38,732 nt of DNA. Source: a virus. Its lineage: Duplodnaviria > Heunggongvirae > Uroviricota > Caudoviricetes. Where the stretch lies: IMG/VR virus record IMGVR_UViG_2718218126_000001. One strand, 5' to 3'. This document shows positions 1-15,993 of the stretch, piece after piece; position 1 is the first letter of the stretch; each line of letters starts with the position of its first letter. The position numbers and the translations under genes were made by a program. The notes below the pieces were generated by a model that did no database searches, was not told where the DNA came from, and saw only the letters and a program-made list of their open reading frames with translations.

Positions 1-798
1 TTAATGAACATTCGTCGCCGAAAACGAGTCTGTATCATTAGTGCGATGCAGTCTCTGCAAAGGATCTTGTTGATAAAATTGGCAGAAACGTTGCCACAAT
101 GAAGGGAAACGAGGAGCAAAAAGTTCTGGGGCGCTAAAGAAATATTCAGAAAGTACGGCAAAACATTCAGCAGGATCACTGGCAGCATAAGCATCAATGC
201 TCGCCGCATTCTCGCCAACCAATTCGATTTCTTCCTGAATGTTGTTCATTGCAGCATGAAGATCGTGTTCCCAGCCAGCAACCTCACGCAACGGAATAAA
301 GGGAACTCCGCTGGCGCGATCGCCGTTACGGGTGTCCAGCTTATGAGCGACTTCATGAATAATCAGGTTAAAACCAGAAGCATCAAAAGAATCTTGTATA
401 TCCAACCAGTTCAAAACGATAGGCCCTTGCTGCCAGCTCTGACCTGACTGAACAATACGTTGGTTATGCACCAGACCGATATCGTCTTCCCATTCATCAT
501 CGACCACAAATGGCGCAGGATAAATTAAGACTTCATGAAAACCATCCAGCCATTCCAGTCCTAACTCCAGAACGGGTAGGCAAAATAGAAGTGCTATCCG
601 GCAGCTTCTTAATGAATCCAGTTCAAAGCCCTGTAAAGGAACAAGCCGCTTTTGCTGTAAAAAACGTTCGGCAAGAGTGACTAATTTGCTTTGTTCCTGT
701 TCCGTCAGACACGTTAAAAGGGGGATCGATAGTGCTTCCTGCCAGGGAAGGGCAGTTTGATGTGCTGATTCTTGTACTTTCCAGGGCCACTTAATCAT
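1..798 (-). CDS. mtfA: Mlc titration factor MtfA (host gene, complete; stop codon at 1-3)
   Basis: ORF 1..837 matches MtfA/YeeI over its full length ([20 protein letters not shown]..., HEVAHKLD zinc-peptidase-like motif). Start assigned to the internal ATG at 796-798, giving 265 aa. Confidence 0.85.
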
Positions 799-891
799 CG
801 TTTTGCTCGCAAACTCGTCACTTGAACAAAATTGCACGGACAGGGACTGTTAAAATGCCAAATTTCCTGGCATCATGGCAACCATCTGAAC

Positions 892-981
892 GGAGAGATG
901 CCGGAGCGGCTGAACGGACCGGTCTCGAAAACCGGAGTAGGGGCAACTCTACCGGGGGTTCAAATCCCCCTCTCTCCGCCA
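892..981 (+). tRNA. serU: tRNA-Ser (anticodon CGA), 90 nt with long variable arm and encoded CCA
   Basis: GGAGAGATGCCGGAGCGGCTGAACGGACCGGTCTCGAAAACCGGAGTAGGGGCAACTCTACCGGGGGTTCAAATCCCCCTCTCTCCGCCA. Anticodon loop CT-CGA-AA; class II tRNA architecture. Confidence 0.9.
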
Positions 982-1038
982 CTTTATCAATGACTTACGT
1001 CACTCACTTTTCACCGTCGATCCCCCTGTTAGAACGGA

Positions 1039-1061
1039 CTTAGAATATTCACTTAGAATTA
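1039..1061. repeat. Two direct copies of ACTTAGAAT between tRNA and int; possible integrase arm-type sites
   Basis: acttagaatattcacttagaat seen in sequence directly upstream of the int stop. Function is inferred. Confidence 0.25.
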
Positions 1062-1066
1062 GACCG

Positions 1067-2095
1067 TCACGGGTTTCTGCTCAGAACTGTGACATCCAGC
1101 ACCGGAATATCCAGAGTCGGAGAAACTGCAGGTTTGCGATCATACGTCAGCACCTGCGCCTCAGTTTTGTGACCAGAGAACAACTGCTTTTCTTTACTGC
1201 TTCCGTCGTAGTCTGAGATCCCCTTCGCTTTTAAATCGTGAAACGTTCCCGTAATCGGGTAGCCCAGCTTTTCACTTGCCGCCGCCCTGGCTTTACGCCA
1301 GATATCGTTAAATCCGGTATAACTGTATTGCCCGCCATATTTGTTACAGACCACGAAATGTTGTCCTCCCAACGATTTCGCCTGCTCAAGTGCGAACGTC
1401 AGTCGCTCTGAATACTGTTTGATCTGCTTTTTGCCAGTCTTACCCTGTTGGATAAACAAACCCTTACTCATAACCTGATCCCACGTCAGCTTTCGTATAT
1501 CGCCGATCCGCGTGGCGCACAGATAGGCGATCTCCATCGCGCACTGTAAAACGGGAGATGCCTCCTGATAAATTGCGATATATTCCTCGTCCGTGAAATA
1601 GTAGTCGCGGGGCTTGAGGGAAAATTTACTGACGCCCTGGCATGGATTCCCTTTTACGTATCCGCGTTCGTATCCCCAGCGGAATACTCGCGACATACTG
1701 GCTTTTTCATGGTTCGCCTGTGTTTTGCTTTTCAGCCCCCGCTTGTCCATATACAGCCGCACGTGAGCAGGTTTTATGTTGTCGGCTTTCATTTTCCCGA
1801 ACGCGGCGAGTAATTTCTTCTGGTGCTGCAGATAATCCTTTTGTGTACGCTGACCGAGTTCCAGATAGTAGGTGCTGTTGAGAAATTTGTTCCAGAGTTT
1901 ACTGAACGTCATGACATCAATAGCATCATTCAGGATCTCTTCGTATTTCACCCATACCTGAGCAATTGACAGATCATTAATTTTACCCAGCGTAATACAC
2001 TCTCGGGGCGTTGGTTTGAAATAATAGCTGTATTTGTTTTTATAAACGCGGGGTGGCAGCTTATTATCTTCCGCGCTTTTTCGTGTTCTGCTCAT
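1067..2095 (-). CDS. int: Phage integrase, tyrosine recombinase family
   Basis: 342 aa with RIGD, HDLKAKG and C-terminal LTYDRK-type catalytic Tyr region. Adjacent to tRNA; ATGA overlap with upstream gene. Confidence 0.9.
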   Translation of the reverse strand: MSRTRKSAEDNKLPPRVYKNKYSYYFKPTPRECITLGKINDLSIAQVWVKYEEILNDAIDVMTFSKLWNKFLNSTYYLELGQRTQKDYLQHQKKLLAAFGKMKADNIKPAHVRLYMDKRGLKSKTQANHEKASMSRVFRWGYERGYVKGNPCQGVSKFSLKPRDYYFTDEEYIAIYQEASPVLQCAMEIAYLCATRIGDIRKLTWDQVMSKGLFIQQGKTGKKQIKQYSERLTFALEQAKSLGGQHFVVCNKYGGQYSYTGFNDIWRKARAAASEKLGYPITGTFHDLKAKGISDYDGSSKEKQLFSGHKTEAQVLTYDRKPAVSPTLDIPVLDVTVLSRNP

Positions 2096-2310
2096 CAGAT
2101 TGCATCAAAATTTGGTTGTTCTTCTTCGGCAATCTGCACGGACCTTGCTCCGGACAGCGCAGCGTTTACATGCGTCCATGTGACGCGAGGTCGCCCATCG
2201 CGGCGTTTTACATAAGAGATCCCGGCACGGGTCAGGGCGCCGCATTGTTTTGACGGGAACTGGTAGCCGGTCAGTTCAACCAGTTCCTCGTCGTTTAACA
2301 GATCGTTCAT
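2095..2310 (-). CDS. DUF4224-like small protein (excisionase-like position)
   Basis: 71 aa with LVELTGYQFPSKQ motif typical of DUF4224 proteins found beside integrases. RBS GAGGAAAG upstream; stop overlaps int start. Confidence 0.5.
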   Translation of the reverse strand: MNDLLNDEELVELTGYQFPSKQCGALTRAGISYVKRRDGRPRVTWTHVNAALSGARSVQIAEEEQPNFDAI

Positions 2311-2470
2311 GGTCTTTCCTCATTATGTAGCTTATTGCGTCATCTGCCACATGGCAGGCACGGGCAATATCAGACTCGGTCAAGGCCTGTTTCCTGACGC
2401 TGGCCGACAGTCGGCCAATTTTGATATCAAATGCGGAGAGCAGAGTTGCTCCCGGTTGCCATCGCAGCAT
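2276..2470 (-). CDS. Hypothetical small protein (64 aa from internal ATG; possible small DNA-binding or directionality factor)
   Basis: ORF 2276..2500; ATG at 2468-2470 is preceded by AGGAGG at 6-nt spacing. Function unknown. Confidence 0.35.
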   Translation of the reverse strand: MLRWQPGATLLSAFDIKIGRLSASVRKQALTESDIARACHVADDAISYIMRKDHERSVKRRGTG

Positions 2471-2519
2471 TGTGATCCTCCTGTTACTGGTGAATCGCAA
2501 TGCTAGCGATGGTGAGTTT

Positions 2520-2702
2520 TTATTTCTGATTAGGCGTAATCAGTTCTGGTGGGGGGAATGCCGATTTCTCCCGCGTGACCTTAATGTTTTCTGGCAGGTG
2601 TAGCCCAAGTTCGCAGCGACTCCGTGCTTCAATAATGCCATTGGTACCATCGGCAAGTACCAGGTGAACCGCGTCACCACGCTTTAATGTGAGTTTAAGC
2701 AT
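2520..2702 (-). CDS. CsrA/RsmA-like small RNA-binding protein (putative)
   Basis: 60 aa: MLKLTLKRGD...GLHLPENIKVTREKSAF aligns by eye with CsrA MLILTRRVGE...GVNAPKEVSVHREEIY. 1-nt TAATG overlap with upstream gene. Confidence 0.4.
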   Translation of the reverse strand: MLKLTLKRGDAVHLVLADGTNGIIEARSRCELGLHLPENIKVTREKSAFPPPELITPNQK

Positions 2703-3271
2703 TAGCGTACCCTCAGCGAACGTTCGCCGCGTTCCAGATGTGCGCCTGGTACCGGGTTTAATAACTCGGCTGGTGGTGTTTCTCCACGCGCCAGTATTTC
2801 GGCGGCAACCGCCTCCGCAGATTCAATCACTTCTTTAATGGCTCGCTTGTTTGGTGTAATAACCGTTTCTACATCAACAAGTGACACGCCTTCATACTCA
2901 TCCGGGATCTTATCTTTGCTATCGATAATTACCCGGATAGCCCCCTGTGCATCAGTAAATGTGTTTTTTGCGGTTTTTAGTTTATCCAGGCCAGCAGCTT
3001 GCTGGCAGGCGAGCATATGCTTCCGAATTGCTTTTTCCTTGCCTTCAAAGGACGTCTTACGGGTAGCCAGGCGAGACATTTCTTCAGCGCAGGTACTGGC
3101 ATTGCCCTGTAAATTGCGGCAGATGACCATCATGGCGTCCAGTTTGTCTCCCAGTTCTCCTTCCATACCTTCAAGTGTGTCGGCGATCATCTCTGGCGTC
3201 AGTTCGTCGGAGGTTTCCAGCAGGTCAATCAGGCTGGCGTATTCTTTTGCAATAGCGATAGCGGTGCTCAT
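2702..3271 (-). CDS. Phage protein, Siphovirus Gp157-like (putative; recombination-module associated)
   Basis: 189 aa; N-terminal IAKEYASLIDLLETSDE...DTLEGMEGEL pattern recalled from the Gp157 family. RBS AGGAG; translationally coupled to neighbours. Confidence 0.45.
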   Translation of the reverse strand: MSTAIAIAKEYASLIDLLETSDELTPEMIADTLEGMEGELGDKLDAMMVICRNLQGNASTCAEEMSRLATRKTSFEGKEKAIRKHMLACQQAAGLDKLKTAKNTFTDAQGAIRVIIDSKDKIPDEYEGVSLVDVETVITPNKRAIKEVIESAEAVAAEILARGETPPAELLNPVPGAHLERGERSLRVR

Positions 3272-5484
3272 GCTGTTTGCTCCTGTGCGGCGGCGAGAGC
3301 GGCGAGGCGTTCGGTTTTGATGTCGCTGATACGGCGCAGACGTGATCCCAGATACGATGAATATTCTTTATCGCCTTTGGCTTCCGCTGCTTTCCTGTGT
3401 ACATCCACTTCGCGGGCGATGAGGCCAAATACCTTGTTTACTTCGTTGGCGGTTACCGCGGCGGCCAGCGTATTGGCAACGTTGATAAGCTTCTCATCCA
3501 GTTCCTTACGCAGACGGGTAGCATCTTCCGCATTTTCGCTGGCATTCTTGATATCAAACTCAGCTTTATTCCTCTGGCGGTATTCCGGATTGTCGTACAG
3601 GCCCATGAAAATATCGGCGCTGAATCCGAGAGGGGATAGCGCTTTCTTAACAGCATCCGTCCAGGATTTCTTCGGCGCTTCGCCGTCGCTTGTTGGTCCG
3701 TATTTAGTGTCGTAGATATAAGGTGTGCATCCGTAAGCCTCGGACTCACCGCGCACTCCATTCAATATGTACCAGACTCTAACTTTCATGGTGTGGTGCA
3801 TTTCACATAGGTACCCGCCAACACCGTCTTGAATCAGATCCCATTCTATTTTTTCACCAACCTGTTTTTTGCGAACTATCGGTGCGCCTTTATCAAAACG
3901 CTCTTCCACCACCTCTACACCCCAGCCAATACCAAACGGCCCAAATTCGCGAGTCGCTTTCATCGCTATATAAGTGCCGTTGATGGATGTGCCGCCGCCG
4001 TTCTGAGAGAAAGCACTGGTGAAGCGCTCATCGGTTTTGAATACGTTCTTCCACAATGCCAGGTTATCTGTGTCGTCGGAGTCCTTTAACTCCGTTTCGA
4101 TAGCTGAGATTGCATTCTGCCGCTTGTGCTCTTCGGTATGGACCCGCTCAACCAGCGCGTCAACGTTCTGCACCAGATCCTTTACCTGCTCGCTAAGTTT
4201 TTCTTGTGGAGGAGTCTCTTCTGCCAGGGTAATTGCTGCAGGTTCCCTCTGTGATACGGCGTTATTTTCAGGTACGTCATACACATGGCGAGGCGTGACA
4301 AACTGCTCACGCAACTGCTGCAAACTACGTTCTCCAGCATTTGCAGCTTCGCTTTTTTCGCCCTGATTTGAGGGTGTTTCTGACATCATCCCATCAATTG
4401 AGAATCGTCCGCCGCCGTGGTTGGTGACTTTTACATCATCCTTTGGTGCTGCTTCCTTTGGCTTCTCTTCAACAGCATTTGCATCACGCTGCCCGTTAGC
4501 TTGCAGCCAGTTGTCGATGTGACTGCGCAGGGATTGTGGGAAGTGGTACGTGTCTTTTGCGGGGGCGCTCTGAATAACACCGAATACTGATGCACGGTCA
4601 TAGGCAAGGATCTGATCCGTTGTGCGCAAGGCCATTGACCAGCGTTTAAAATCTTCCCTGTCCTGACTGATTATTTCGTCTGCCGCTTTCAGGATGCTGG
4701 GGGTGATTTTTTCCGGGCCAACGGGTAACAGGGCGCAGGCAATTTCACGATCCAGTGTGGCGTGAGTCTGTTGGTAAGGACGTGCGGATGCTGTTTCTGG
4801 TTTTACCTCCGGCAGCATTTCATCGCGTTTACCGGGATTCTCTACCCATTTTTTTATAAATTTGGAGATAGTCCAACTGGTCGGGTTTTGTTCCTGGGTA
4901 TCGCAACTTGCCAAAATTGCATGTACCAGATTATTCAATCCAGCAATATGCATGTACTCGATGGGCTTACACGCCACCATGGCATCAAGAACGATGCGGT
5001 TAAACGCGTCAACCTCATCCTCACTGTCAGTATCACTGTTGTCGAGCATCTCCAGGTATTCACGCGTCTGCGCAAGCAATTCACTGTCGACTTCGTTGGC
5101 ATCGTGGCTGAACAGCAGGACGGCGGCGAAGCGTTCACGAGCAGGCAGTTTCATCAGGTCGCTAACCTGTGAGATATCTGCTGAACTGCAACCTGAATCA
5201 ACAGGAGTGTTAACTACCCATCTCTCGCCATCAAAACTGTGTTCTGTGGCAAACGTCTCATCAAACTCACCGACGCCTGGGCGCGGTTGGCCCGGGGCAT
5301 CTTCCCAGATTTTAGGTTTGAAATAGTTGTCGCCGTGGTCAGGGTAGGCTTCCCACAATTTGCCGATGATGATGTTCTCGGCAACTTTTTTGTTAGGGGC
5401 GTCGATGGCGATGGCCAGCGCCGGGATCGCGCCGTTTTTGAGCGCACCTTTTTTCGCTTCTAACAAGCCGTTAAAAATGGTCAT
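3268..5484 (-). CDS. Large early protein with Rad52/Sak-type single-strand annealing domain and ~450-aa N-terminal extension
   Basis: 738 aa. Residues ~480-640 carry Rad52 signatures (GPFGIGWGVEV, KKSWTDAVKKALSPLGFSADIFMGLYD). RBS GAGGAAAG before the ATG at 5482-5484. Confidence 0.6.
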   Translation of the reverse strand: MTIFNGLLEAKKGALKNGAIPALAIAIDAPNKKVAENIIIGKLWEAYPDHGDNYFKPKIWEDAPGQPRPGVGEFDETFATEHSFDGERWVVNTPVDSGCSSADISQVSDLMKLPARERFAAVLLFSHDANEVDSELLAQTREYLEMLDNSDTDSEDEVDAFNRIVLDAMVACKPIEYMHIAGLNNLVHAILASCDTQEQNPTSWTISKFIKKWVENPGKRDEMLPEVKPETASARPYQQTHATLDREIACALLPVGPEKITPSILKAADEIISQDREDFKRWSMALRTTDQILAYDRASVFGVIQSAPAKDTYHFPQSLRSHIDNWLQANGQRDANAVEEKPKEAAPKDDVKVTNHGGGRFSIDGMMSETPSNQGEKSEAANAGERSLQQLREQFVTPRHVYDVPENNAVSQREPAAITLAEETPPQEKLSEQVKDLVQNVDALVERVHTEEHKRQNAISAIETELKDSDDTDNLALWKNVFKTDERFTSAFSQNGGGTSINGTYIAMKATREFGPFGIGWGVEVVEERFDKGAPIVRKKQVGEKIEWDLIQDGVGGYLCEMHHTMKVRVWYILNGVRGESEAYGCTPYIYDTKYGPTSDGEAPKKSWTDAVKKALSPLGFSADIFMGLYDNPEYRQRNKAEFDIKNASENAEDATRLRKELDEKLINVANTLAAAVTANEVNKVFGLIAREVDVHRKAAEAKGDKEYSSYLGSRLRRISDIKTERLAALAAAQEQTA

Positions 5485-5617
5485 TGGTCTTTCCTCATTA
5501 CAGGTCAGTGGTCTTTAGTAGGGGATTTCAACGGTATCTGGCGTGTATTCGATGCAAAGTAACTGAATCGCCCCGGGAATCCTGGAGACTAAACTCCTTG
5601 AGAGAGAGGTAAACAGG

Positions 5618-5944
5618 ATGACTAAAAATACGCGCTTTTCCCCTGAGGTCCGTCAGCGGGCCGTTCGTATGGTTATCGAAAGCCAGAATGACTATGACTC
5701 GCAGTGGGCGGCCATCAGCTCCATCGCCCCTAAAATCGGCTGTACGCCTGAGACCCTGCGTACCTGGCTGCGTCAGTATGAGCGCGATGCCGGTGCAGGT
5801 GACGGCGGACTGAGCACCACTGAACGTCAGCGTCTGAAGGAACTGGAGCGTGAAAACCGCGAACTGCGCCGCAGCAACGATATCCTGCGCCAGGCTTCCG
5901 CGTATTTTGCGAAGGCGGAGTTCGACCGCCTGTGGAAAAAATAG
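5618..5944 (+). CDS. IS3-family transposase OrfA (HTH)
   Basis: 108 aa [19 protein letters not shown]...[31 protein letters not shown]; leucine-zipper-like C-terminus typical of IS3 OrfA. Confidence 0.9.
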
Positions 5945-6831
5945 CGCCTCTGGTGGATACCCTGCGTGGTGCGCACGGGGTCGGACCGGTATGCCACGAG
6001 CTGGCTGTCGCCCCGTCAACGTATTACCGGCATCGTGCGCATCAACGGCATCCGGATAAACGCAGTCAGCGGGCACAGCGTGATGACCTGCTGAAGCCGG
6101 AGATACAGCGCGTGTACGATGAAAACCACAGCGTGTACGGTGTGCGCAAGGTCTGGCGCCAGTTGTTGCGTGAGGGGGTGACCGTGGCCAGGTGCACAGT
6201 AGAACGGCTGATGAAGGTGATGGGGCTTGCCGGTGTGCGCCGGGGTAAAAAGGTCCGCACCACAGTCAGCCGGAAAGAAGCCGCTGCGGGTGACCGGGTG
6301 AACCGCCAGTTCGTGGCAGAACGCCCCGACCAGCTGTGGGTGGCTGACTTCACGTATGTGAGCACCTGGCAGGGCTTCGCTTACGTGGCGTTCATCATCG
6401 ATGTGTTCGCCGGCGTCATTGTGGGCTGGCGGGTCTCATCGTCGATGAAAACGACGTTCGTGCTGGATGCACTGGAGCAGGCGCTGTGGGCCCGTCGCCC
6501 GTCGGGCACCATCCATCACTCAGATAAGGGGTCACAATATGTGTCGCTGGCATACACTCAGCGGCTTAAGGATGCAGAGTTGCTGGCGTCAACCGGCAGC
6601 ACAGGCGACTCATATGACAACGCGATGGCGGAGAGCATCAACGGACTTTATAAAGCGGAGGTGATACATCGTAAGAGCTGGAAAAACCGCGCCGAAGTGG
6701 AACTGGCCACACTGACGTGGGTGGACTGGTACAATAACCGACGGTTGCTGGAACGACTGGGTCATATCCCGCCGGCAGAAGCGGAAAAGGCATATTACGC
6801 TTCCATCGGAAATGGTGGTCTGGCAGCCTGA
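5932..6831 (+). CDS. IS3-family transposase OrfB (DDE catalytic domain), expressed as OrfAB by -1 frameshift in the A-run at 5936-5941
   Basis: 299 aa in the -1 frame relative to orfA, overlapping at TGGAAAAAATAG. Contains [18 protein letters not shown] and [15 protein letters not shown] motifs of the DDE core. Confidence 0.85.
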
Positions 6832-6873
6832 GTTCACAGATAAAACACTCTCCCGGAAAACCGGGGCGGTTCA

Positions 6874-7128
6874 AACGCGATGGCGGAGAGCATCAACGGA
6901 CTTTATAAAGCGGAGGTGATACATCGTAAGAGCTGGAAAAACCGCGCCGAAGTGGAACTGGCCACACTGACGTGGGTGGACTGGTACAATAACCGACGGT
7001 TGCTGGAACGACTGGGTCATATCCCGCCGGCAGAAGCGGAAAAGGCATATTACGCTTCCATCGGAAATGGTGGTCTGGCAGCCTGAGTTCACAGATAAAA
7101 CACTCTCCCGGAAAACCGGGGCGGTTCA
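6874..7128 (+). repeat. Tandem 255-bp duplicate of the IS right end (copy of 6619..6873), including a second right terminal repeat
   Basis: Exact repeat seen in sequence; ORF 6880..7086 duplicates the last 68 aa of OrfB. Most likely a remnant of a second IS copy after rearrangement. Confidence 0.85.
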
Positions 7129-7184
7129 GAAATGTCCGCTCTCTCATCCTCTGGACAGAATGCGGCGCAGCTCGCCATGCCAAA

Positions 7185-7688
7185 ATGCTGGAAACAGAAC
7201 AGGCCTGGGAAGTTTTCGAAAAGCTGGAAGATTGTTATTTTAGACAGCGTCCAGAGAGGCGGAGTACAACTACCGATGACCGTACTCCCTTACGTGATGC
7301 CGTTAATATGCTGGTCGGTAAGAAAGGCATGATGTATCCCGATGCCTACACCATGATTCATCAACGCTTCGCCGTCTCTCACATAGAACAACTGTCACAG
7401 ACGCAAATGTTAGAGGCGATTGAATACATCCACTGCCTGCTACTCGATGAAAATCAGCCAACCATTCCAGATTTTTCTTTTATCACCACTATCAAAAATG
7501 GAAAAGTGACCAGGATGCGCCATGTTGCCAAAGGCGAACATCTGATGACGTTTGACGCTTTCAAAGAGATCGCTGAGCGGGCAGGGTATCTGGTGATCCA
7601 CAGCGACAACCTGCGAAGTATGACGCTGGATAAATTGATGGTAATGGGGAAAAAGTCGGTTGTATCCGTTGCTGATTCAGCATTTTGA
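7185..7688 (+). CDS. Phage regulatory / antirepressor-like protein, probably 5'-truncated by the IS-associated rearrangement
   Basis: 167 aa from ATG 7185, but the same frame is open back to the IS end at 7129 with no upstream start. Functional assignment weak. Confidence 0.35.
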   Translation: MLETEQAWEVFEKLEDCYFRQRPERRSTTTDDRTPLRDAVNMLVGKKGMMYPDAYTMIHQRFAVSHIEQLSQTQMLEAIEYIHCLLLDENQPTIPDFSFITTIKNGKVTRMRHVAKGEHLMTFDAFKEIAERAGYLVIHSDNLRSMTLDKLMVMGKKSVVSVADSAF

Positions 7689-7720
7689 CAGGTTGAATGT
7701 TTGGCGCGGTTATACTCTAT

Positions 7721-7797
7721 TTGCGCTTAAAAAGGTATTTAGTCACAACCAGCACGAGGCCGAATACTCTGTCAAAGTACCGCCCATGTAAAACTGT
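7721..7797. repeat. Direct repeat copy A (~77 bp, ~93% identical to 11322..11398); decayed copy of the 3' end of the membrane-protein gene
   Basis: ttgcgcttaaaaaggtatttagtcacaaccagcacgaggccgaatac... versus copy B; 4 mismatches and a 1-bp deletion that breaks the reading frame. Confidence 0.8.
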
Positions 7798-7865
7798 TAC
7801 GTATGTACTTGATGACTAAGCTGGCACCAGGTTAACACCAGGCGCCAGCTTGAAGGAAACTTCAG

Positions 7866-8789
7866 TTATTGGTTTCTGAGGAAAGCGATTCTTGAAAGGG
7901 TCATTTGCGTCTGGCAGTCGACCATTTTCTTGACTTCAGCATCTGTTCCCTGCATTGAAACTTTACCGCACATAGCATCCTTAGTTTTGATCCACTGACG
8001 CTGAGAAGGCAGCAACTCTTTTTTCTTCGCCGGCGTTAACCTGCCCCAGACTGTATTCAAATCAGAGTCAGCATTCGCAAATGCCATTCGGGACTGATCA
8101 AGGCTTTCAGCTTTTTGCGGCTGAAGTTGTGCCTGCCTCTCTATTTGCTTCTCCGCCTCATACCTGGCCTGTTCCTGTGCCCTGAGTTGCACCTGTTGTT
8201 CCGCTTCAATTTGACTCTGTTGGGCATCCTTAGCCTGCTGGATTTTCTGCTGCTCAACGATCGGGTTGATAATGGAAAGCGATGTCAGTAAAGCGGCGCC
8301 CACTGATATCGGATTATCAGAAGAGGTTTTTACAAAAACGTTTTTCTGATCGTCGGTCGCCTGCACGGTGTAGGTGATACGTTTTGAAAAGGCGTTTGCG
8401 TTGTTCTCCAAAAACAGATTTTCCATTTGCTTATCGAGATTACGATTAAAATTCTTTCTGTAAGCATCAGAAAGCTGGACGTACTCGTTCGCAGGTAGAG
8501 TCATCGTCACGGTCCCTTCACAAGTTTTCATTGTGCTGCCCGTGTCACTTGATGTTGTGGAGATTTCAGAGACGGCTAGTTTGATCTTGTCCAGTGTGCT
8601 TCGTTTGGTCTGATTAGTGACATCAGGGTATTTATCGACCTGTTCAGAGAGTCCTTCATAAGCAGATTTTTTTAATAAATCCATGAGAGCTGATTGGGTC
8701 ATTTCCGAAGAACAACCGATCTCATCTTTTTTGTTATCACAGCCTGTAAGGGCAATGGCGAGTAAGAGTACTGAGTATTTTAATCTCAT
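7866..8789 (-). CDS. Lipoprotein with C-terminal DUF1311 (LprI-like lysozyme-inhibitor) domain, putative
   Basis: 307 aa; signal peptide plus lipobox LAIALTGC; Gln-rich coiled-coil middle; C-terminal ...DLNTVWGRL...QRQWIKTKDAMC...MVDCQTQMTLSRIAFL resembles DUF1311. Confidence 0.55.
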   Translation of the reverse strand: MRLKYSVLLLAIALTGCDNKKDEIGCSSEMTQSALMDLLKKSAYEGLSEQVDKYPDVTNQTKRSTLDKIKLAVSEISTTSSDTGSTMKTCEGTVTMTLPANEYVQLSDAYRKNFNRNLDKQMENLFLENNANAFSKRITYTVQATDDQKNVFVKTSSDNPISVGAALLTSLSIINPIVEQQKIQQAKDAQQSQIEAEQQVQLRAQEQARYEAEKQIERQAQLQPQKAESLDQSRMAFANADSDLNTVWGRLTPAKKKELLPSQRQWIKTKDAMCGKVSMQGTDAEVKKMVDCQTQMTLSRIAFLRNQ

Positions 8790-9415
8790 GAATTCCCTTT
8801 AGAGTAAGGATTGGTTTTTAAGACGCGGTCTGTAATCAGTTCCGAGAGCTACAGTAAACAACGCTGAGCACTGAACGCATCACAGGCAAGGTAAAAGGTG
8901 ATATCGGCAAAGGCTGTGAAACCTTTAATTCAACAGATGGGAACGGTATGCACAGGATCCTGTAACGACGCTCCCAAAACCGGAAACCTGTAAGGCATGT
9001 TTTCGCTGCTGAACTTAATATACGAACCTGCACTATCATGAACATATTTTATATCGTTATACCCCGAGTGATTGTGCCCGGCAATGGATAGTGTCCTGGA
9101 GGAACTATTTCTACTGTAAAAGGTAGACATTTAATTTCAGTGTGGAATTATTCCCTGCTGTTAATAACCATGGCTCTATATGGCACCGAGCGGACTAGTT
9201 AACTTGCCTGAAAGCCGCTATGAGTGAGGAGCGAATATTGGCACGATAGGATACCTGAACCATTTTTTGGACATGCGCTAAAAGCGAATGATTAGTTTTA
9301 TCGGAATATTTACAGTATACTTACAAGGCAAGCTTGGCGTACCGTCTTGGGCGAGATTGCTTAAATTATTTTGTGGATATATCATTCAAACAAAAGATAA
9401 TAAAATGAGGTTGTT

Positions 9416-9613
9416 ATGTCATATATTCGCGTAGAGAAAGATGGCCTTCAGTATGAAGCAGAATACTTCCGTGAAGAGGATATGGTCACAGTCTTTGGGG
9501 TTAGAGGAGGGCATTCCAGCGTGGTTCTAAATGGAATGACAGAAGTCGCGGCTGCTCGTACTGCGTTACGAAATCTTATTAGAGAAAATCAGGTTGATCC
9601 TCTAACTGATTAA
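9416..9613 (+). CDS. Hypothetical small protein (65 aa)
   Basis: RBS TGAGG 8 nt upstream of the ATG; AT-rich surroundings; no recognisable motif. Confidence 0.4.
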   Translation: MSYIRVEKDGLQYEAEYFREEDMVTVFGVRGGHSSVVLNGMTEVAAARTALRNLIRENQVDPLTD

Positions 9614-9817
9614 AAATAAGCCATCTTAACTGAGAGCATATTTTGATATAATTTAGATTAAATCTATTTTGAAGGTTAGTTTGGGATGAGAAGATTACAT
9701 CAAAACCGTTATTACTAGCAATAAGTTGTGTAAATCAAATAATACATAATCAGGTGGTAATATATACTAAGCGTAGTAAAGTTTTTATATATTCCTGTAA
9801 CTTTGTGAGAAACTTCC

Positions 9818-10483
9818 ATGAAAGCCGACAACTTAAGAATTATAGAGAATGGCAAATATGTTTTCGATATGTTCTTGGATACTGGTGAATTTTACTATAC
9901 AAGTCATGCCTTTGACACGAGAGAAGATGCAAAAAGCTGGATGGAAGAATGGCAGATTTGGGCAAATAATGTATCGAGTGGGAAAGTAAGTAGTATTTAT
10001 TATATTTTACAAGTGCCTGATACTTGGGCCGGTTCTTCAGATAAAAATAACCCTTACTCGGGACTTTATGTGAAAATAGGGCGTTCCAATAATGTGCTAA
10101 AAAGGTTGTCTAACCTGCAGACAGGTGCATTTGGTCAATTAATATTACACGCTTTGGAACCAGGTGGTTCAGAAAAAGAAAACTATCTTCATGAAAAATT
10201 TAGCAACGAAAGACGTCAAGGTGAATGGTTTGTTTGTACTAAGGAACTTACCAAGCATATATTTACAACATGGTTTAAAAACAAAATGCTCCCACCAGAA
10301 CATCAAATAAAAATAATGCAGCTCGCAGAAAGAATAGGTATTTATTCGCATGTTCATACACTAATGGGGGGGAAGCCAGACTTAGTAAACCCATCTATTA
10401 GTGAACCTTGGGAATGCGAAAAATATGTTTTGGTTGATATGATTTATAGCTCTTTAGCAAAGCAAGTTAATCATAAAAAATAA
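9818..10483 (+). CDS. T5orf172 / GIY-YIG-like domain protein (putative nuclease)
   Basis: 221 aa; SSIYYILQV...GLYVKIGRSNNVLKRLSNLQTG...EKENYLHEKFSNERRQGEWF matches the GIY...YIG...R...E pattern of T5orf172/MUG113 domains. Extended -10 TGaTATAAT upstream. Confidence 0.6.
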   Translation: MKADNLRIIENGKYVFDMFLDTGEFYYTSHAFDTREDAKSWMEEWQIWANNVSSGKVSSIYYILQVPDTWAGSSDKNNPYSGLYVKIGRSNNVLKRLSNLQTGAFGQLILHALEPGGSEKENYLHEKFSNERRQGEWFVCTKELTKHIFTTWFKNKMLPPEHQIKIMQLAERIGIYSHVHTLMGGKPDLVNPSISEPWECEKYVLVDMIYSSLAKQVNHKK

Positions 10484-10803
10484 AGTGTTACATTTTAACT
10501 ATACAATTATTGATTCACTAATGAAGAGGTGATTTAGACGTATGAAGTTTTAATAAGCTCCAAGAATATTTTGTCATACATGGGTTAAAGAGTTATATAA
10601 TAATATCTGCTTCTGGAACACAGCAGACAAGCACCTGCAGATAAAGGTCTGCTGAGAGCGAGAAGCGGATCATACGTTGGAAGTTGTTTAGGCAAATACG
10701 TTATAAACGTATTTGATTAAATTTACTTGGATCATAGTCTTCAATAACGCTTTATTATATTGTTTTTCATGCAGCAAACAGGTTCACAGGTAGGTAATAA
10801 GCT

Positions 10804-11208
10804 ATGAGTGGATGGAAAGAGCCTTTTACATTAGCAGAACAGATACAATTAGCATTAAATTTAGGTTATGAGGCTGTACCAGATGAAGAGGCATATACTG
10901 GGGCATACTTCATTAAAGGTGGTAAGAAGTGGATCTTTAACATCATCGGTCTCAAAAAGACATTGAATATATCTTCAGATGATGAACTAAGAGGGCAGGA
11001 TTATGATGTTGATATGTATTTCGAAATTCGCCAAAATTGGGCACAATACCAAGATATGATCTTTGGAAGCGAAGATATCACTCCTTCACCTAAAAATGAA
11101 CTTACTTCAATTTACCATGACCTGCAGGTAACGGATGAACCCAGGGAAATGGTGTATCTTTCTGATGGGATGTGGCTGGATCCCAACGGACGAATTGTAC
11201 AACGATAG
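10804..11208 (+). CDS. Hypothetical protein (134 aa)
   Basis: Own upstream region with palindromes (aaatacgt/acgtattt at ~10694-10715); no recognisable motif. Confidence 0.45.
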   Translation: MSGWKEPFTLAEQIQLALNLGYEAVPDEEAYTGAYFIKGGKKWIFNIIGLKKTLNISSDDELRGQDYDVDMYFEIRQNWAQYQDMIFGSEDITPSPKNELTSIYHDLQVTDEPREMVYLSDGMWLDPNGRIVQR

Positions 11209-11317
11209 CACTCGAACACACTCAGTAATCGTCTATAAGGCCAGCACTTGTTACTTGGTCATTTGGGGTTGCTGGTCTTCTCCATTAAATCGACTAAAGT
11301 CTGTTCCATAGAGAGAG

Positions 11318-11923
11318 TTACTTGCGTTTAAAAAGGTATTTTGTCACGACCAGCACGAGGCCGAATACCTCTGTCAAAGTACCGCCCATGTACAACTGTA
11401 GTGTTAAATCCTCAAATTCCAGCTTACCTGCGCCGTCGGCAATAAATACACCATTCATTATCAGAAGTTGGCAAGCAAGGATAATCAGGAACCATTTCCC
11501 GTATCGTTTTTTTAGAGCGATTTCTGCTTCAAAATCTTTGTTGTTGAGTTGTTTGCGCTCATGCTCGGTATCAAGTGAATTCACCTGTTTCACAGATGTG
11601 AACTCGGTCAAGATTTTACTCTCAGTACGGGTGACTTGTTGAGAGGGTGTAACAGTTGGAATTCTTTTGCTAGACGCAGCTACAGCCATTTTGCGAGCTT
11701 CGGCAGCTCTTTTTCTGGCTATTCCGCGAATACGGACAGCCGTTTTTTTGGGGGCGTGCGAAACCTTTGGCTGAGGTGAAGTTTCGTCAGGAGACTGAAC
11801 CGGGGTTTCATCGTCCCCCGGCTCAACCTCTTCTGCTAACTGACGGTGTAGGTTGAGGGAATCCTTCAGTCGGCGTGCAACTTCCTGTTTGAAACGGCTG
11901 TTAAAATCGTCATCCGATGGCAT
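11318..11923 (-). CDS. Membrane-anchored protein: hydrophilic basic N-terminal region, two predicted C-terminal TM helices
   Basis: 201 aa; WFLIILACQLLIMNGVFIADGAG and TLTEVFGLVLVVTKYLF hydrophobic segments. Starts 9 nt after the peptidase stop; last 25 codons lie inside direct repeat copy B. Confidence 0.55.
   Translation of the reverse strand: MPSDDDFNSRFKQEVARRLKDSLNLHRQLAEEVEPGDDETPVQSPDETSPQPKVSHAPKKTAVRIRGIARKRAAEARKMAVAASSKRIPTVTPSQQVTRTESKILTEFTSVKQVNSLDTEHERKQLNNKDFEAEIALKKRYGKWFLIILACQLLIMNGVFIADGAGKLEFEDLTLQLYMGGTLTEVFGLVLVVTKYLFKRK
11322..11398. repeat. Direct repeat copy B (~77 bp), coding the 3' end of the membrane-protein gene
   Basis: Matches 7721..7797 with 4 mismatches and 1 indel. 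Confidence 0.8.
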
Positions 11924-11932
11924 TCTAAAGCG

Positions 11933-12421
11933 TTACCCCAACCTCAAGTTCTTTAAACGATAAGTCATCGCATCGTCAGATACGCCAAAATAATGCGCCA
12001 TTATATAACTTGGTTGGCCGTCAGCGTGCAGTTTTCTGACCTCATCAACCGGCATCAGAAGTTCTGCTGCGAACTTGTTCGCAAAAATTTCATCAGGATG
12101 CGTTCCGGCGCTTGCGGTTTCGCCACGTAAATCAACGTACTCATATTCATCACTATGCGATGCTTGCCGGGCGATGTAATGCCCCAACTCATGCCCACAT
12201 GAAAAACGTTGACGAACTTTGTTGTCATCACTGTTTAGAAAGATCGCTGGATCTTGATCTTTTTGTTTAATCAGTGCGCCAGAAACTTTCCCAGGAAGAT
12301 CGGTAATAAAAACATCTAATCCCATGTCGTGAGCAATTTTCGCTGGATCAACAGGGAAACCACGCCCGCACCAGAACGTGTCCAGCACTCGCCGGGCGTG
12401 CTCTCTTGGGTTGGTAGCCAT
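11933..12421 (-). CDS. ImmA/IrrE-family (DUF955, M78-like) zinc metallopeptidase
   Basis: 162 aa; HEXXH as CGHELGHY and downstream DEIFANKFAAELLMP, the family signature. RBS GGAGG. No fused HTH domain. Confidence 0.7.
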   Translation of the reverse strand: MATNPREHARRVLDTFWCGRGFPVDPAKIAHDMGLDVFITDLPGKVSGALIKQKDQDPAIFLNSDDNKVRQRFSCGHELGHYIARQASHSDEYEYVDLRGETASAGTHPDEIFANKFAAELLMPVDEVRKLHADGQPSYIMAHYFGVSDDAMTYRLKNLRLG

Positions 12422-12495
12422 AGCTCCTCCAGTTACTGCATTACGATTGTTGGTCGAAATATAGACAACATGTTCCGTACCACTTTCCTGTGAAA

Positions 12496-12510
12496 GTGCA
12501 AATTCTGCAC
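12496..12510. promoter_or_regulatory. Perfect inverted repeat GTGCA-N5-TGCAC upstream of the peptidase operon; candidate operator
   Basis: gtgcaaattctgcac seen in sequence, ~75 bp upstream of the peptidase start on the minus strand. Confidence 0.3.
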
Positions 12511-12750
12511 TTCTGGTACGATATTAACTGTTAGTAGTAAAGTCTTCCAGATAAATCACTTTAAAATCTTGTGAATTGCTTGCTTTTTACGCTGCATTGT
12601 GGATGGCTCAATGTTTCCAGTAAAAACATACATGATAATCATGACATTAGTGGTTTTTTAAGCGTCCATATGTTTCTTAAAAAAATGGATGCCACAAGAG
12701 GCCAGATGAGAACGGAAAGGGAAGGCTATTACATGTGTGATTTATTACAT

Positions 12751-12766
12751 CTGTAAAAAAATACAG
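12751..12766. promoter_or_regulatory. LexA-box-like CTGT-N8-ACAG motif (weaker match)
   Basis: ctgtaaaaaaatacag in the divergent intergenic region. Confidence 0.3.
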
Positions 12767-12855
12767 ATCTAACTTGATCTTTTCATTGAAGTTTTTCTTG
12801 GTCCTGGATAGGATCTGGAGGTTGCGAAGTTTTTAGAGTCGCATCAAAGGGAAAG

Positions 12856-12879
12856 CCCTGACAGCGCCAACTGTCAGGG
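12856..12879. other. Perfect 9-bp stem / 6-nt loop hairpin of unknown function
   Basis: ccctgacag-cgccaa-ctgtcaggg in a 540-bp non-coding region. Confidence 0.3.
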
Positions 12880-12988
12880 CCATACAAAAACATCGGTTAA
12901 TGCTTTCGTTGAGATCTCGGTTTGGGAGATTACCTCAACCGGGATCCCGTGTAAAGCATTCATTACCGAAAATGATATAGGTCAATGA

Positions 12989-13267
12989 ATGAAACACATC
13001 TGTAAAAAGTCACATCGTCACGACAGTATGTTTGATGTTCTTTCTGCAAATCAGGGTAACGTTGGGCGGCACAAGTGTTGTGGATGTGCCTATGATAAAG
13101 GTATGTGGCATGCATTAATCGGCGTTCCGCGTGCGGTTGATGACTCTGTTTTAGGTGATTTACCCGAAAGCCAGGCTGGGCATGTCCGTCATAAAGATGC
13201 TTTTGAAGCATATAATATGGGCTATGACCATGGGATGCATAAAAAAGCCTACGGTATGGCCTCATAA
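12989..13267 (+). CDS. Hypothetical Cys/His-rich small protein (92 aa)
   Basis: Followed immediately by a strong intrinsic terminator, which favours this strand over the overlapping minus-strand ORF. Function unknown. Confidence 0.4.
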   Translation: MKHICKKSHRHDSMFDVLSANQGNVGRHKCCGCAYDKGMWHALIGVPRAVDDSVLGDLPESQAGHVRHKDAFEAYNMGYDHGMHKKAYGMAS

Positions 13268-13288
13268 TCTGGTGCAAATGAATAACTA

Positions 13289-13316
13289 ACCCGCTTCGGC
13301 GGGTTTTCTTTTTTAT
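13289..13316 (+). terminator. Rho-independent terminator
   Basis: acccgc-ttcg-gcgggt stem-loop followed by tttcttttttat. Confidence 0.6.
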
Positions 13317-13385
13317 AGAACCCTGCGATGTGAAAACGAATAATAAATTTTGCAAATAATGCAGTTTTTATTATTCGAGGTAATT

Positions 13386-14027
13386 ATGAAAACCTTCTAT
13401 GAGGACTGGCCTGAAACTTTCGTTAGCCGATTAGATATGTTACGAGCTCTGGATGATCGCGGCTCGACCCGGAGGCTCTATCTTGAGCGGACCGGGGCAA
13501 TATTTGACGCTCTGGCAGAAGAGATACGTACAGCCGTTGCCGGGCATCCTGAAATCGACGTGAGTGAACTTGATATCGGGCCGCTGTATCGCTATTACAA
13601 ACGTGGAGAAAAGGGGAATCCGCTGGCTGACTTACTTATTGAGTTGGCTCCACCAACTTGTGAACGGGTTCGTATATCTCCTGAAGTGTACACAATCCCG
13701 TATCTGTTTTTTGCACTGTTGCTAGCGCAAGGCGCTGACAACGATGCCCGCGATTTTTTCAATATGATGATGCGACCGTTGATCATCGCCTACCGTTTCA
13801 AACAACTGGCGCGCTACCTTGGCACTAAGGGCGGAGGACGACCACAGCACAGATTAAAAAGCGAAGCCATTGAACTGGCTGATCGTTTTTTTACTGAAAA
13901 CCCGACAGCGCCATTATCGCGTGGTGTGCAATACATATCCGGTATTTTTGTGGCGAAATACTCTGACCCACCTGCAGCGTCGACGATTAGAAAATGGTTA
14001 ATTTCAATTTACAGGAGTGATAAATAA
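13386..14027 (+). CDS. Hypothetical protein (213 aa from ATG with GAGG RBS)
   Basis: ORF 13350..14027; preferred start MKTFYEDWPETF at 13386. No recognisable motif. Confidence 0.5.
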   Translation: MKTFYEDWPETFVSRLDMLRALDDRGSTRRLYLERTGAIFDALAEEIRTAVAGHPEIDVSELDIGPLYRYYKRGEKGNPLADLLIELAPPTCERVRISPEVYTIPYLFFALLLAQGADNDARDFFNMMMRPLIIAYRFKQLARYLGTKGGGRPQHRLKSEAIELADRFFTENPTAPLSRGVQYISGIFVAKYSDPPAASTIRKWLISIYRSDK

Positions 14028-14069
14028 TGACCATAAACGGTTTAATCTCCTATAAAACCGTTTAATAAA

Positions 14070-14089
14070 ATTCACGACGTGAATATAAT
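14070..14089 (+). promoter_or_regulatory. Palindrome ATTCAC-GAC-GTGAAT overlapping a perfect TATAAT hexamer; candidate operator/promoter
   Basis: attcacgacgtgaatataat seen in sequence. Confidence 0.3.
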
Positions 14090-14140
14090 TGTTCATTATT
14101 CCCTCATTGTATCTGGCGTTATGACAAATGCCATAAAATA

Positions 14141-14156
14141 CTGTATAAATGTACAG
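14141..14156. promoter_or_regulatory. LexA (SOS) box, strong match to CTGT-N8-ACAG consensus
   Basis: taCTGTataaatgtACAGgt, 22 nt upstream of the ATG at 14179 and overlapping a TGACAA / TATAAA promoter-like pair. Confidence 0.5.
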
Positions 14157-14178
14157 GTAATGGCGTTAGGGGGAAGAC

Positions 14179-14358
14179 ATGAATATTCAAGAATCTATAG
14201 GCGAACTACCGGAAACATGCCGGGCTGTTATCAAGCGTAAGGACGGACACATCGTTGGTGTGCGTGTTCTGACCGATGATGAACGGATTGCCAGCCTGAT
14301 GGCGTTTCTCGAGTTGGCAGAAATAGCTGGATATACTATTACACCCCCTGACGCGTAA
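14179..14358 (+). CDS. Small protein (59 aa), probably SOS-regulated; not in the supplied ORF track
   Basis: ATG with strong RBS AGGGGGAA; translation MNIQESIGELPETCRAVIKRKDGHIVGVRVLTDDERIASLMAFLELAEIAGYTITPPDA; LexA box directly upstream. Confidence 0.45.
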   Translation: MNIQESIGELPETCRAVIKRKDGHIVGVRVLTDDERIASLMAFLELAEIAGYTITPPDA

Positions 14359-14435
14359 AACACGGTATAATATCGGTGCTGGATTGAACACCCGGCACCA
14401 TTTTCTGAACACTGCCGCGCCACCTGGAGTTAAAC

Positions 14436-15032
14436 ATGGCGCAGCATTCATTTATCAGGGTATCCGGCGGTTCGCTAATACCCGCGACACCAGACACGCA
14501 ACGCTGGTTGACTGAACGAGTCAAACCAGGTGCTGTTGTGTATGCAGATTTCAAACAGGCACGTAATCCCGCGTTTCACCGTAAATTTTTCTCACTTCTC
14601 AACCTGGGCTTTGATTACTGGCATCCGTCCGGAGGGGCTATTTCTCCTGCGGAGCGAGAACTGGTCCACGGCTACGTTAAGTTACTGGCGTATTACGGTG
14701 GGCATGGTGATGTCATGGCTGAGCTGGCTGATCAGTATCTTCTCGATGAGTCGGAAAAGCGCGCGGGGAATATCAGTGCGGTGAAGTCGTTCGAGGCGTT
14801 TCGCGCCTGGGCGACTATGGAATCTGGATTTTATGACGTTCATCAGATGCCAGATGGTAGTTTGATGCGTGTACCTCGTTCAATCTCGTTTGCTGCGATG
14901 GACGATCTTGAGTTCGGTCAACTGTATTCAGCCGTTTTAGATGTGCTGTGGAATTATATTTTGTTCCGCACGTTTGCCTCTCAGGAGGCCGCTGAAAATG
15001 CTGCCGCGCAGCTGTTGGATTACACATCATGA
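14436..15032 (+). CDS. nin-region phage protein, DUF1367-like (putative)
   Basis: 198 aa; RBS GGAG; position upstream of Q. Family assignment from memory of lambdoid nin-region proteins. Confidence 0.5.
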   Translation: MAQHSFIRVSGGSLIPATPDTQRWLTERVKPGAVVYADFKQARNPAFHRKFFSLLNLGFDYWHPSGGAISPAERELVHGYVKLLAYYGGHGDVMAELADQYLLDESEKRAGNISAVKSFEAFRAWATMESGFYDVHQMPDGSLMRVPRSISFAAMDDLEFGQLYSAVLDVLWNYILFRTFASQEAAENAAAQLLDYTS

Positions 15033-15322
15033 AAAAAATCGACCTGAGAAAAGCTGCACGTGGTCGCGCTTGTACTGTGCGTATCCCCGGTGTGTGCAAT
15101 CACAATCCTGAAACCAGCGTACTGGCTCATTATCGTCTCGCCGGAACGTGCGGCACAGCCATCAAACCTCACGATATGCAGGGCGCTATCGCCTGCAGTG
15201 CGTGTCACGATGCCATCGACGGACGTACAAAAACGGATTACGAGCACGACTCATTGTTGTTGATGCACGCTGAGGGAGTTTTCAGAACACTGGCTATCTG
15301 GCGCGATGAGGAGTTTATCTGA
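15029..15322 (+). CDS. nin-region protein, DUF1364 / YbcO-like putative nuclease
   Basis: 97 aa; KAARGRACTVRIPGVCNHNPETSVLAHYR...ACSACHD Cys/His pattern recalled from the YbcO family. Overlapping stop/start with neighbours. Confidence 0.55.
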   Translation: MKKIDLRKAARGRACTVRIPGVCNHNPETSVLAHYRLAGTCGTAIKPHDMQGAIACSACHDAIDGRTKTDYEHDSLLLMHAEGVFRTLAIWRDEEFI

Positions 15323-15993
15323 TGAGTAACGAGTATTTATTGGAATATACCCGCATAAAACTGCGCGCTGCATTACGGGATTTGTCTGGTGGTTCTAAGG
15401 GGCAACTGGAAGCATTGTGTGAGCACCCGCCAGCAGATAAAAACGCATACCCACGCAAACATATTCATCGTGTGCAACTGGAGGACCGGACCGTTGATGC
15501 TCTGGTTACGCCAGTTTATGCCCTGGAAAGTTTCAGCAGACGTCGTCCCGCGCCGCCGATGAATGATTATGAATTCGCTGATTCATCGTGGCGCCGCGCC
15601 GTGAATTCGCTCGACGTTAGCCAGCAGGCGTGGTTGCGCTATTGCTACGGTGGTCACCTGGCGTTCAAACACCAAACAGCTATTTGTGAGGCTGTCTGGA
15701 GTCGCTATAAAGGACACATCCCCGCGTCAACTCAGAGAAAAGTAGCTAAGCGTCTGCTTTCGTTGGTGTGGTTGTCCGTGCAGGCGGTTGCAGCAGCAAA
15801 TAAACGCGAGGATTTTAAGGAGATGGCTGGATCTGCGCTAGCTGGAATGTTGTCTGTTTCTCGTTCCACCTGGTGCGAAACATACTCCCCGCACTGGGTA
15901 GGAATGAAAGAGGCGGTGAGAGCACTTGATGAAATGGCACTTCTTGCAACTTTGCATCATTATCAAAACCATTTAGACGACGTTTGCGTATAA
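15322..15993 (+). CDS. Putative late-gene antiterminator (Q-like), assigned by position
   Basis: 223 aa directly upstream of a promoter/terminator-like region and the lysis cassette; sequence-level assignment weak. Confidence 0.45.
   Translation: MSNEYLLEYTRIKLRAALRDLSGGSKGQLEALCEHPPADKNAYPRKHIHRVQLEDRTVDALVTPVYALESFSRRRPAPPMNDYEFADSSWRRAVNSLDVSQQAWLRYCYGGHLAFKHQTAICEAVWSRYKGHIPASTQRKVAKRLLSLVWLSVQAVAAANKREDFKEMAGSALAGMLSVSRSTWCETYSPHWVGMKEAVRALDEMALLATLHHYQNHLDDVCV

Follow-up and report, generated by a model that had tools for sequence, protein, structure and literature searches.

A complete IS3-family insertion sequence and a tandem copy of its right end stand in place of the annotated immunity and replication region of a lambdoid prophage

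Organization of the locus and the insertion sequence

The window, a stretch of 38,732 nucleotides, begins at tRNA-Ser(CGA) and is colinear with the prophage situated beside mtfA in E. coli SE11. The region studied here possesses, from left to right, the remnant of an early-left gene on the minus strand (5515..5563), a complete insertion sequence (IS) on the plus strand (5564..6873), a second copy of the right end of the same element (6874..7128) and the 3' part of an ORF6N-domain gene on the plus strand (7129..7688). The insertion sequence is an IS3-family element related to IS629, with a length of 1310 bp (TGAATC...GGTTCA). Its left inverted repeat (IRL) is found at 5564..5588 (plus strand) and starts with TGAATCGCCCCGG, and the inner right inverted repeat (IRR) at 6849..6873 (plus strand) terminates with ...GGGGCGGTTCA. 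The terminal inverted repeats are imperfect and of the TG...CA type, TGAATCGCCCCGG and TGAACCGCCCCGG matching at 12 of the first 13 positions.

Two overlapping frames were found in the element. orfA (5618..5944, plus strand) encodes 108 aa with an HTH_Tnp_1 domain, the orfB frame (5941..6831, plus strand) encodes the DDE/rve catalytic domain, and the OrfAB fusion has 404 aa. Pfam scanning of the transposase identified HTH_Tnp_1, HTH_21, rve and rve_3, representing an N-terminal HTH and a C-terminal DDE domain, and the 404-aa OrfAB scored 367.8 bits against the NCBIfam model transpos_IS3, which has a cut-off of 160. An A6 slippery run for a programmed -1 frameshift is present at 5936..5941 (plus strand, TGG AAA AAA TAG), along with an ALIL frameshift-stimulating pseudoknot at 5899..6015 (plus strand, Rfam RF01497, 95.3 bits with a gathering score of 50, E 1.6e-23). 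RefSeq labels identical copies of the IS with 'programmed frameshift' and names them only as 'IS3 family transposase'. All the features tested for membership in the IS3 family, namely the domains, the frameshift layout, the TG...CA repeats and a target duplication of 3-4 bp, were found. The description of a 1310-bp IS with terminal inverted repeats and an A6 frameshift site, which had been given in an earlier, sequence-only reading of this DNA, was therefore confirmed.

The element shares many features with IS629 (IS1203/IS3411 group; EHEC, Shigella), including the length of 1310 bp, the orfA/orfB layout, the A-run frameshift, the ALIL pseudoknot, the TG...CA ends and target duplications of 3 bp (occasionally 4 bp). 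Alignment with the annotated IS629 of phage BP-4795 was gapless over the whole 1310 bp, but only 1098 of the 1310 positions were identical (83.8%), and the identity was 89% for OrfA and 87% for OrfB. According to the ISfinder convention, elements with less than 95% amino acid or less than 90% nucleotide identity are different ISs. IS629 proper, for which about 90% nucleotide and 95% amino acid identity would be needed, was ruled out on these values, and the element in the window would count as an IS distinct from IS629 by the usual convention. The designation IS629-like in the sequence-only reading thus holds for length and organization but not for identity, and the element should not be labelled IS629 in annotation.

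Full-length copies with 100% identity to the element were found in 6 complete E. coli genomes and in further assemblies. The assembly collection lists the exact OrfB sequence in 383 of its blocks, and the bulk of the thousands of E. coli matches to the IS fall in the identity band of 80-90%. The identical IS showed perfect 3-bp target duplications at 8 independent sites (GAT, ATA, ATG, AAC, CAA, CTG, TAA and GAA, the last one belonging to the precursor copy described below), indicating that the boundaries assigned to the IS are right and that the element is active.

The tandem right end and its boundaries

Repeat search of the window identified 6619..6873 and 6874..7128 (both plus strand) as direct head-to-tail copies of 255 nt with 100% identity, each representing IS positions 1056-1310. 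TRF reported the same repeat with a period of 255, 2.0 copies, 100% matches and a score of 1020. BLAST of the IS against the window placed IS positions 1-1310 at 5564-6873 and positions 1056-1310 at 6874-7128, and no other matches were obtained. The exact 255-bp repeat seen earlier in the letters is thus borne out by all of these searches. The second copy carries a second IRR (7104-7128) and an ORF of 68 aa (6880..7086, plus strand), which is a C-terminal OrfB fragment and not a functional transposase. A short imperfect tandem repeat of another kind, with a period of 22, 2.3 copies and 75% matches, is situated at 24896-24945 of the window.

At the junction 6873|6874 the terminal A of the IS is joined to the internal IS position 1056. 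The tandem join reads GGTTCA|AACGCG (GGTTCA|AACGCGATGG; spanning sequence GGAAAACCGGGGCGGTTCAAACGCGATGGCGGAGAGC). Two junctions are specific to the window, the one between the left flank and IRL (GTAAC|TGAATC) and the one between the inner IRR and IS position 1056. The uninterrupted left site reads GTAAC|TGCTGG in SE11 and in L013, a contig described below. All three novel junctions are positioned at exact IS termini (TG... or ...CA), and no bases are shared at the tandem join. Joins at exact termini with no overlap at the tandem are the signature of transposase strand transfer and not of slippage.

The AAC triplet which adjoins the left IS end (5561..5563) is identical to the triplet that follows the inner right end (6874-6876, IS positions 1056-1058). 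The inner 1310-bp unit is thus flanked by AAC on both sides, and the chance of such a match is 1 in 64. AAC was also found as a used target triplet at another site of the same IS (L011/L030) and for an IS629-type element of a related prophage (L003). As AAC is used as a target elsewhere, the AAC/AAC flanks of the 1310-bp unit fit two bona fide transposase targets. The outer boundaries differ, with AAC on the left and GAA on the right, and show no target duplication, which is expected after a rearrangement. The earlier statement that no clean target duplication is visible is therefore correct for the outer boundaries but not for the inner 1310-bp unit.

The same triplets could also be read as partners in a transposase-independent duplication, by slippage or unequal exchange on the 3-bp AAC microhomology, with the deletion following or accompanying it. 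In that case the AAC target duplication after a left-site copy would have paired with the AAC found inside the IS at 1056. Since both partners carry AAC, the join allows a reading with 3 bp of microhomology, but AAC is frequent within 1.3 kb, and few end points taken at random would fall on an IS terminus plus its 3-bp duplication. Short homologies are used in IEE/MMEJ-type joins at IS ends; however, 3 bp is a minimal homology and IEE is not known to be present. This origin is regarded as very improbable. A scenario in which the IS inserted anew at the precise junction of an older deletion (L-AAC-IS1059...), which would make AAC/AAC one target duplication, was rejected because one specific triplet would have to be hit after the only known source of transposase had been destroyed.

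Prophage setting and the deleted block

Window positions 1-5565 showed 99.0% identity with SE11, and positions 7127-9190 showed 98.5%. Between these two blocks SE11 possesses 7,452 bp, which is replaced in the window by the IS structure, and 7,454 bp separate the left flank from the IS in L013. Comparison with related prophages, which had been suggested along with the sequence-only reading, thus found 7.45 kb between the flanks in SE11, E62 and L013. In all three, the block contains the greater part of a 106-aa gene followed by two small genes, and then the CI-like HTH repressor, the P22_Cro-type gene and YdaT. It also contains genes of 74 aa and 354 aa, the gene of a DnaB-type helicase, another five small genes and the first 79 codons of the ORF6N gene. 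The domain scan of L013 gave HTH_3/HTH_19 (131 aa), P22_Cro, YdaT_toxin and DnaB/DnaB_C, along with the 354-aa gene, and the intact gene order common to SE11 and E62 is repressor, Cro, YdaT, O-like gene, DnaB and others. The deleted DNA therefore has the composition of a lambdoid immunity and replication module in L013, a divergent CI-like repressor and Cro ahead of replication initiator and helicase genes, with the RefSeq annotations of E62 and SE11 in agreement and function assigned by annotation only.

The window has lost the immunity region together with the replication module and both early promoter regions, and the integrase, the 738-aa gene, Q, the holins and lysis genes and the structural genes are kept. 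A loss of part of the immunity region had been suspected earlier. The comparison extends this to the whole region with the CI-like repressor and Cro, and to YdaT and the replication genes. Among 23 contigs read for the 738-aa neighbour gene, with 4 representative places inspected, only intact immunity regions were found.

Genes are cut on both sides of the IS structure. The 106-aa early-left gene retains its last 15 codons and the stop (5515..5563, minus strand) and is cut by the left end of the IS. Translation of the remnant, LLCIEYTPDTVEIPY*, is the C-terminus of the 106-aa gene of L013, and the gene is intact in SE11 and L013. The ORF6N-domain gene retains residues 80-264 of 264 aa (7129..7688, plus strand) and lacks the N-terminal ORF6N domain. 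The downstream ORF is open from 6993, inside the IS, to 7688, and its sole in-frame start is the ATG at 7185 (167 aa). The full-length 264-aa ORF6N gene is annotated in E62 and SE11, and the N-terminal 88-aa fragment in L013 carries PF10543 ORF6N. The proposed truncation of the downstream gene is thus verified, with residues 1-79 of the 264-aa protein missing.

A few other features of the prophage were also recorded. In SE11 (L002/L006) the CI-like repressor gene (L002 11071-11479) is annotated as a frameshifted pseudogene in an otherwise intact prophage, so that the same immunity region has decayed there in another, independent way. The 738-aa early-left gene (3268-5484, minus strand) had no matches in the Pfam scan, and PF27430 YdfE_N is present in the precomputed annotation. 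Its residues 232-336 showed a weak match to NCBIfam exodeoxyribonuclease VIII (E 2.5e-12), which is far under the cut-off, and its upstream promoter region was removed by the deletion. Window positions 9190-13195 and 17407-18232 could not be aligned with the SE11 prophage and represent variable cargo between the LprI gene and Q/lysis. As per the annotation of L013 and E62, a nuclease gene of the GIY-YIG/T5orf172 type belongs to this cargo, as does an ImmA/IrrE (Peptidase_M78) gene accompanied by a 201-aa partner.

Precursor state in related prophages

Exact-protein look-up with the 167-aa remnant of the ORF6N gene identified the Logan contig ERR12340327_68 (L013) along with a short contig. L013 positions 1-1182 are 100% identical to window 4384-5565, positions 8635-9944 represent the same IS with 0 mismatches, and positions 9690-20504 are 100% identical to window 6874-17688 (10,815 bp, composed of the last 255 bp of the IS and about 10.6 kb of right flank). 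L013 possesses a simple IS insertion in the ORF6N gene, CGCCAGAA[IS]GAAATG. GAA is duplicated, the tandem piece is absent and the 7.45 kb are intact. GAA at 7129..7131 of the window is the right-hand copy of the 3-bp duplication from this first insertion into the ORF6N gene, so an ordinary insertion is the source from which the window inherited its right junction. The state of L013 fits a precursor of the window.

The junction IRR|GAAATG in the ORF6N gene was also found in a second sample, L014 (Logan ERR15835067, 1,088-bp contig), and both L013 and L014 thus show an earlier state with the IS already at one break point. The window keeps the exact IS end, has no shared target duplication and has relatives which hold the missing DNA, as in IS-associated deletions. 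From the state of L013, at least two further IS-driven steps are needed to obtain the window. The IS of L014 differs by one base, at IS position 1255, and has the same variant base there as the IS copy of pSE11-3.

BCE-1, ETEC1738 and HCP5S3_I2 were considered as precursors and rejected, as they possess IS629-type elements (83% identity) at other positions. In these prophages (L003, L004 and L005) three sites are occupied by the IS629-type elements, one downstream of the LprI gene, one close to the ORF6N position and one within the homologue of the 738-aa gene, with the target duplications AAC, ACT and TACC. The prophage family is a repeated target of IS3-family elements.

Searches for the junctions in other genomes

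The tandem junction was searched with an 80-nt sequence and with a 37-nt exact pattern, for which the expected chance count is 0.00. It was absent from 5,426 complete E. coli genomes, PLSDB plasmids, GenBank phages, GTDB species representatives, IMG/VR and JGI metagenomes. Matches to the tandem query with 'full coverage' came from normal IS copies, in which the two halves are separated by 242-258 bp. The left junction (flank|IRL) was absent from complete E. coli genomes, IMG/VR, JGI metagenomes and GTDB representatives, and the right junction (IRR|flank) from complete E. coli genomes and IMG/VR. None of the searched collections (5,426 complete E. coli genomes, plasmids, phages, GTDB, IMG/VR and JGI) yielded a genome with the IS at the left site.

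Exact-protein look-up gave no record of a 73-aa antisense ORF specific to the tandem junction, and the sole match to the 68-aa ORF was a 212-bp contig. This contig (L015; GCA_037978935.1, contig ABRORN010000143.1) is exactly IS positions 1062-1273 and stands alone, and neither of its ends falls on a known variant SNP of the IS. The 68-aa ORF is annotated in 4 NCBI draft contigs (E. coli P0304777.2, 199900.1; the longest with 58,257 bp). L015 and the ORFs in the draft contigs could represent further right-end remnants or contig-edge effects.

An assembly artefact would account for the restriction of the tandem junction to a single assembly among those searched. The true structure would then be left flank-[one IS]-right flank, and the 255-bp tandem would come from two contigs, one that stops at the IS end and one that begins 255 bp within the IS, placed end to end with the overlap left untrimmed. 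A single adjacent deletion, or recombination of two copies, could have turned the precursor into such a structure, which, at one step from L013, would be the most parsimonious biology. The two repeat copies are exactly identical and the duplication stops at the repeat boundary, where assemblers break. However, the L013 contig, assembled at k=31, continues across the IS, a sign that the IS is single-copy in that strain, and with a single copy the assembler would have no reason to break. If the IS was multicopy and still spanned by one contig, long reads must have been used, and these would also span 255 bp. The length of 255 is plausible for a k-mer or read-length overlap, and draft assemblies do hold short contigs and ORF calls which start about 250 bp from the IS right end, but the 38.7-kb window contains no Ns and no other tandem artefact, and the rest of it is base-perfect compared with L013. 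The AAC/AAC flanks and the exact join at the CA end are, moreover, what is expected of transposase chemistry. An artefact is considered unlikely on this evidence. The 7.45-kb deletion is independent of the artefact question, unless two unrelated contigs were joined.

Origin of the structure

We favor the view that the structure is a real scar of IS activity in a lambdoid prophage at tRNA-Ser(CGA)/mtfA, formed through a state with two copies of the IS, and put its probability at about 55%. The first step, seen in L013, is the insertion of the 1310-bp IS in the ORF6N gene with duplication of GAA, a state that survives in another strain. In the second step, another copy would have inserted in the same orientation 7.45 kb to the left, at GTAAC|TGC with AAC as the target. 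With the 7.45 kb still present, that state would possess the junctions GTAAC|TGAATCGCC and GGTTCA|AACTGCTGG. In the third step, the right end of the left copy would have been joined to position 1056 of the right copy, which would remove the immunity and replication block and the first 1055 bp of the right copy in one step. As no genome with a left-site copy or with the tandem junction was found, we infer the second and third steps. Two IS copies followed by an IS-mediated deletion had also been proposed in the sequence-only reading; the deletion stands, as the relatives hold the 7.45 kb, and the second copy at the left site is plausible, the ORF6N-gene copy of L013 being the only one documented.

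The third step could have taken place by different routes. In route (a), the two copies would form a tandem IS dimer, whose reactive IRR-IRL junction integrates into the neighbouring copy. In route (b), the right end of the left copy would attack directly, as an adjacent deletion ending inside the other copy; deletions of this kind are known for IS3-family elements (PMC11708052, PMC8860574). In route (c), the AAC at 1056-1058 of the right copy would receive a third copy, and homologous recombination would then join the left copy with this third one. The product of all these routes would be alike, L-AAC-[IS 1-1310]-[1056-1310]-GAA-R, and the window sequence has no polymorphism which separates them from each other or from the single-copy route described below. 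Tandem dimers, sometimes formed from distant copies, are reported for copy-out-paste-in ISs including IS2, IS3, IS150 and IS911, and the IR-IR junction of such dimers drives intramolecular deletions (PMC9333248). Against a two-copy origin, with a single copy suggested by the L013 contig, several IS events would be needed within a lineage which shows no base differences over about 12 kb, and the tandem is known from one assembly.

A route with a single copy was also considered, in which the copy in the ORF6N gene would have gained the tandem right end first and a later IRL-adjacent deletion would have removed 7.45 kb up to GTAAC. The tandem could have been formed by an IS circle or dimer junction integrating into the IS itself at 1056-1058, or by self-insertion (intermediate junction ATGACAAC|TGAATCGCC) and recombination between the two left parts. 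Before the deletion, this tandem state would show GGTTCA|AACGCGATGG together with CGCCAGAA|TGAATCGCC. Such a route makes use of the only documented copy, but it requires two separate rare events, each with its own intermediate, and these intermediates were not found in the tandem-, left- and right-junction searches of complete E. coli genomes. Adjacent deletions without target duplications in which the IS is retained are common for IS3-family elements such as IS150 and IS3 (PMC11708052, PMC8860574), dimer junctions attack nearby DNA (PMC9333248), and the same IS shows a candidate adjacent deletion at a TnsD/TniQ locus. The match of AAC with AAC would, however, be a coincidence or at best reflect a target preference. 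The single-copy route is thus held to be less probable, with a low likelihood of its own, and the two-copy route is preferred.

At the TnsD/TniQ (Tn7-like) locus, 1,016 bp are located between IRR and GTCATCGACG in L023/L029 (and L010; positions 3943-4958), and in L021/L027 the IRR of the identical IS directly adjoins GTCATCGACG. A target duplication is absent in both states, with AGG on the left. The difference of 1,016 bp probably represents an IRR-adjacent deletion with the IS retained, and it counts in favor of the two-copy route as well as of the single-copy route.

Within the two-copy route, the tandem right end might be a relic left in nature by the tandem-dimer pathway of an IS629-group element, but this is a doubtful suggestion. 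Here two copies separated by 7.45 kb would have given an (IS)2 junction, and its integration into its own second copy would be an 'abortive' adjacent deletion halted 1055 bp into the neighbouring IS. If this is true, the result would be a 1565-bp unit with two usable right ends, which might move as a longer variant.

Relation to known systems and consequences for the prophage

The gene content predicts that the prophage can neither be induced nor confer immunity. One small element took the repressor, cro, both early promoters and the replication genes and left the integrase, Q, the lysis genes and the structural genes, and this grounding of a prophage by an IS is represented at base resolution in its states before and after. 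It belongs to the known class of IS-associated deletions which ground prophages, and is ordinary IS-driven decay with a slightly unusual scar; the structure in the window is a new allele within that class. Annotation by gene count would make the prophage look nearly complete, though it is predicted to be non-inducible and without immunity. The tandem right end is a minor curiosity which, if confirmed, is evidence from a natural isolate for a side reaction of IS3-family transposition.

The structure resembles the adjacent deletions of IS150 in the Lenski long-term lines and of IS3 on plasmids, in which the IS is kept with an exact end, a precursor has the IS in place, no target duplication is present across the element and kilobases of neighbouring DNA are lost (PMC11708052, PMC8860574). 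It differs from them in that a further copy of this IS contains the end point of the deletion, or else the site of a separate event, and for this reason a 255-bp second right end was left behind. The tandem dimers (IS)2 of IS30, IS911, IS2, IS3 and IS150 likewise have copies in direct order and a reactive junction leading to intramolecular deletions, and they can arise from distant copies with loss of the intervening DNA (PMC9333248). In a dimer, however, IRR adjoins IRL with 2-4 bp between them, whereas the IRR ending at 6873 in the window is followed by IS position 1056, so the structure can at most be a decay product of a dimer and not a dimer.

A short right-end fragment retained in the chromosome near other IS activity is also known from IS30B of E. 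coli K-12, which is composed of the last 184 bp of IS30 (PMC9333248); the remnant in the window differs in lying directly behind a complete copy of the same IS. IEE-promoted excision and deletions of IS629 in EHEC are similar in being transposase-dependent deletions from IS3-family ends with joins at 0-6 bp of homology. IEE typically removes the IS, whereas the IS is retained in the window.
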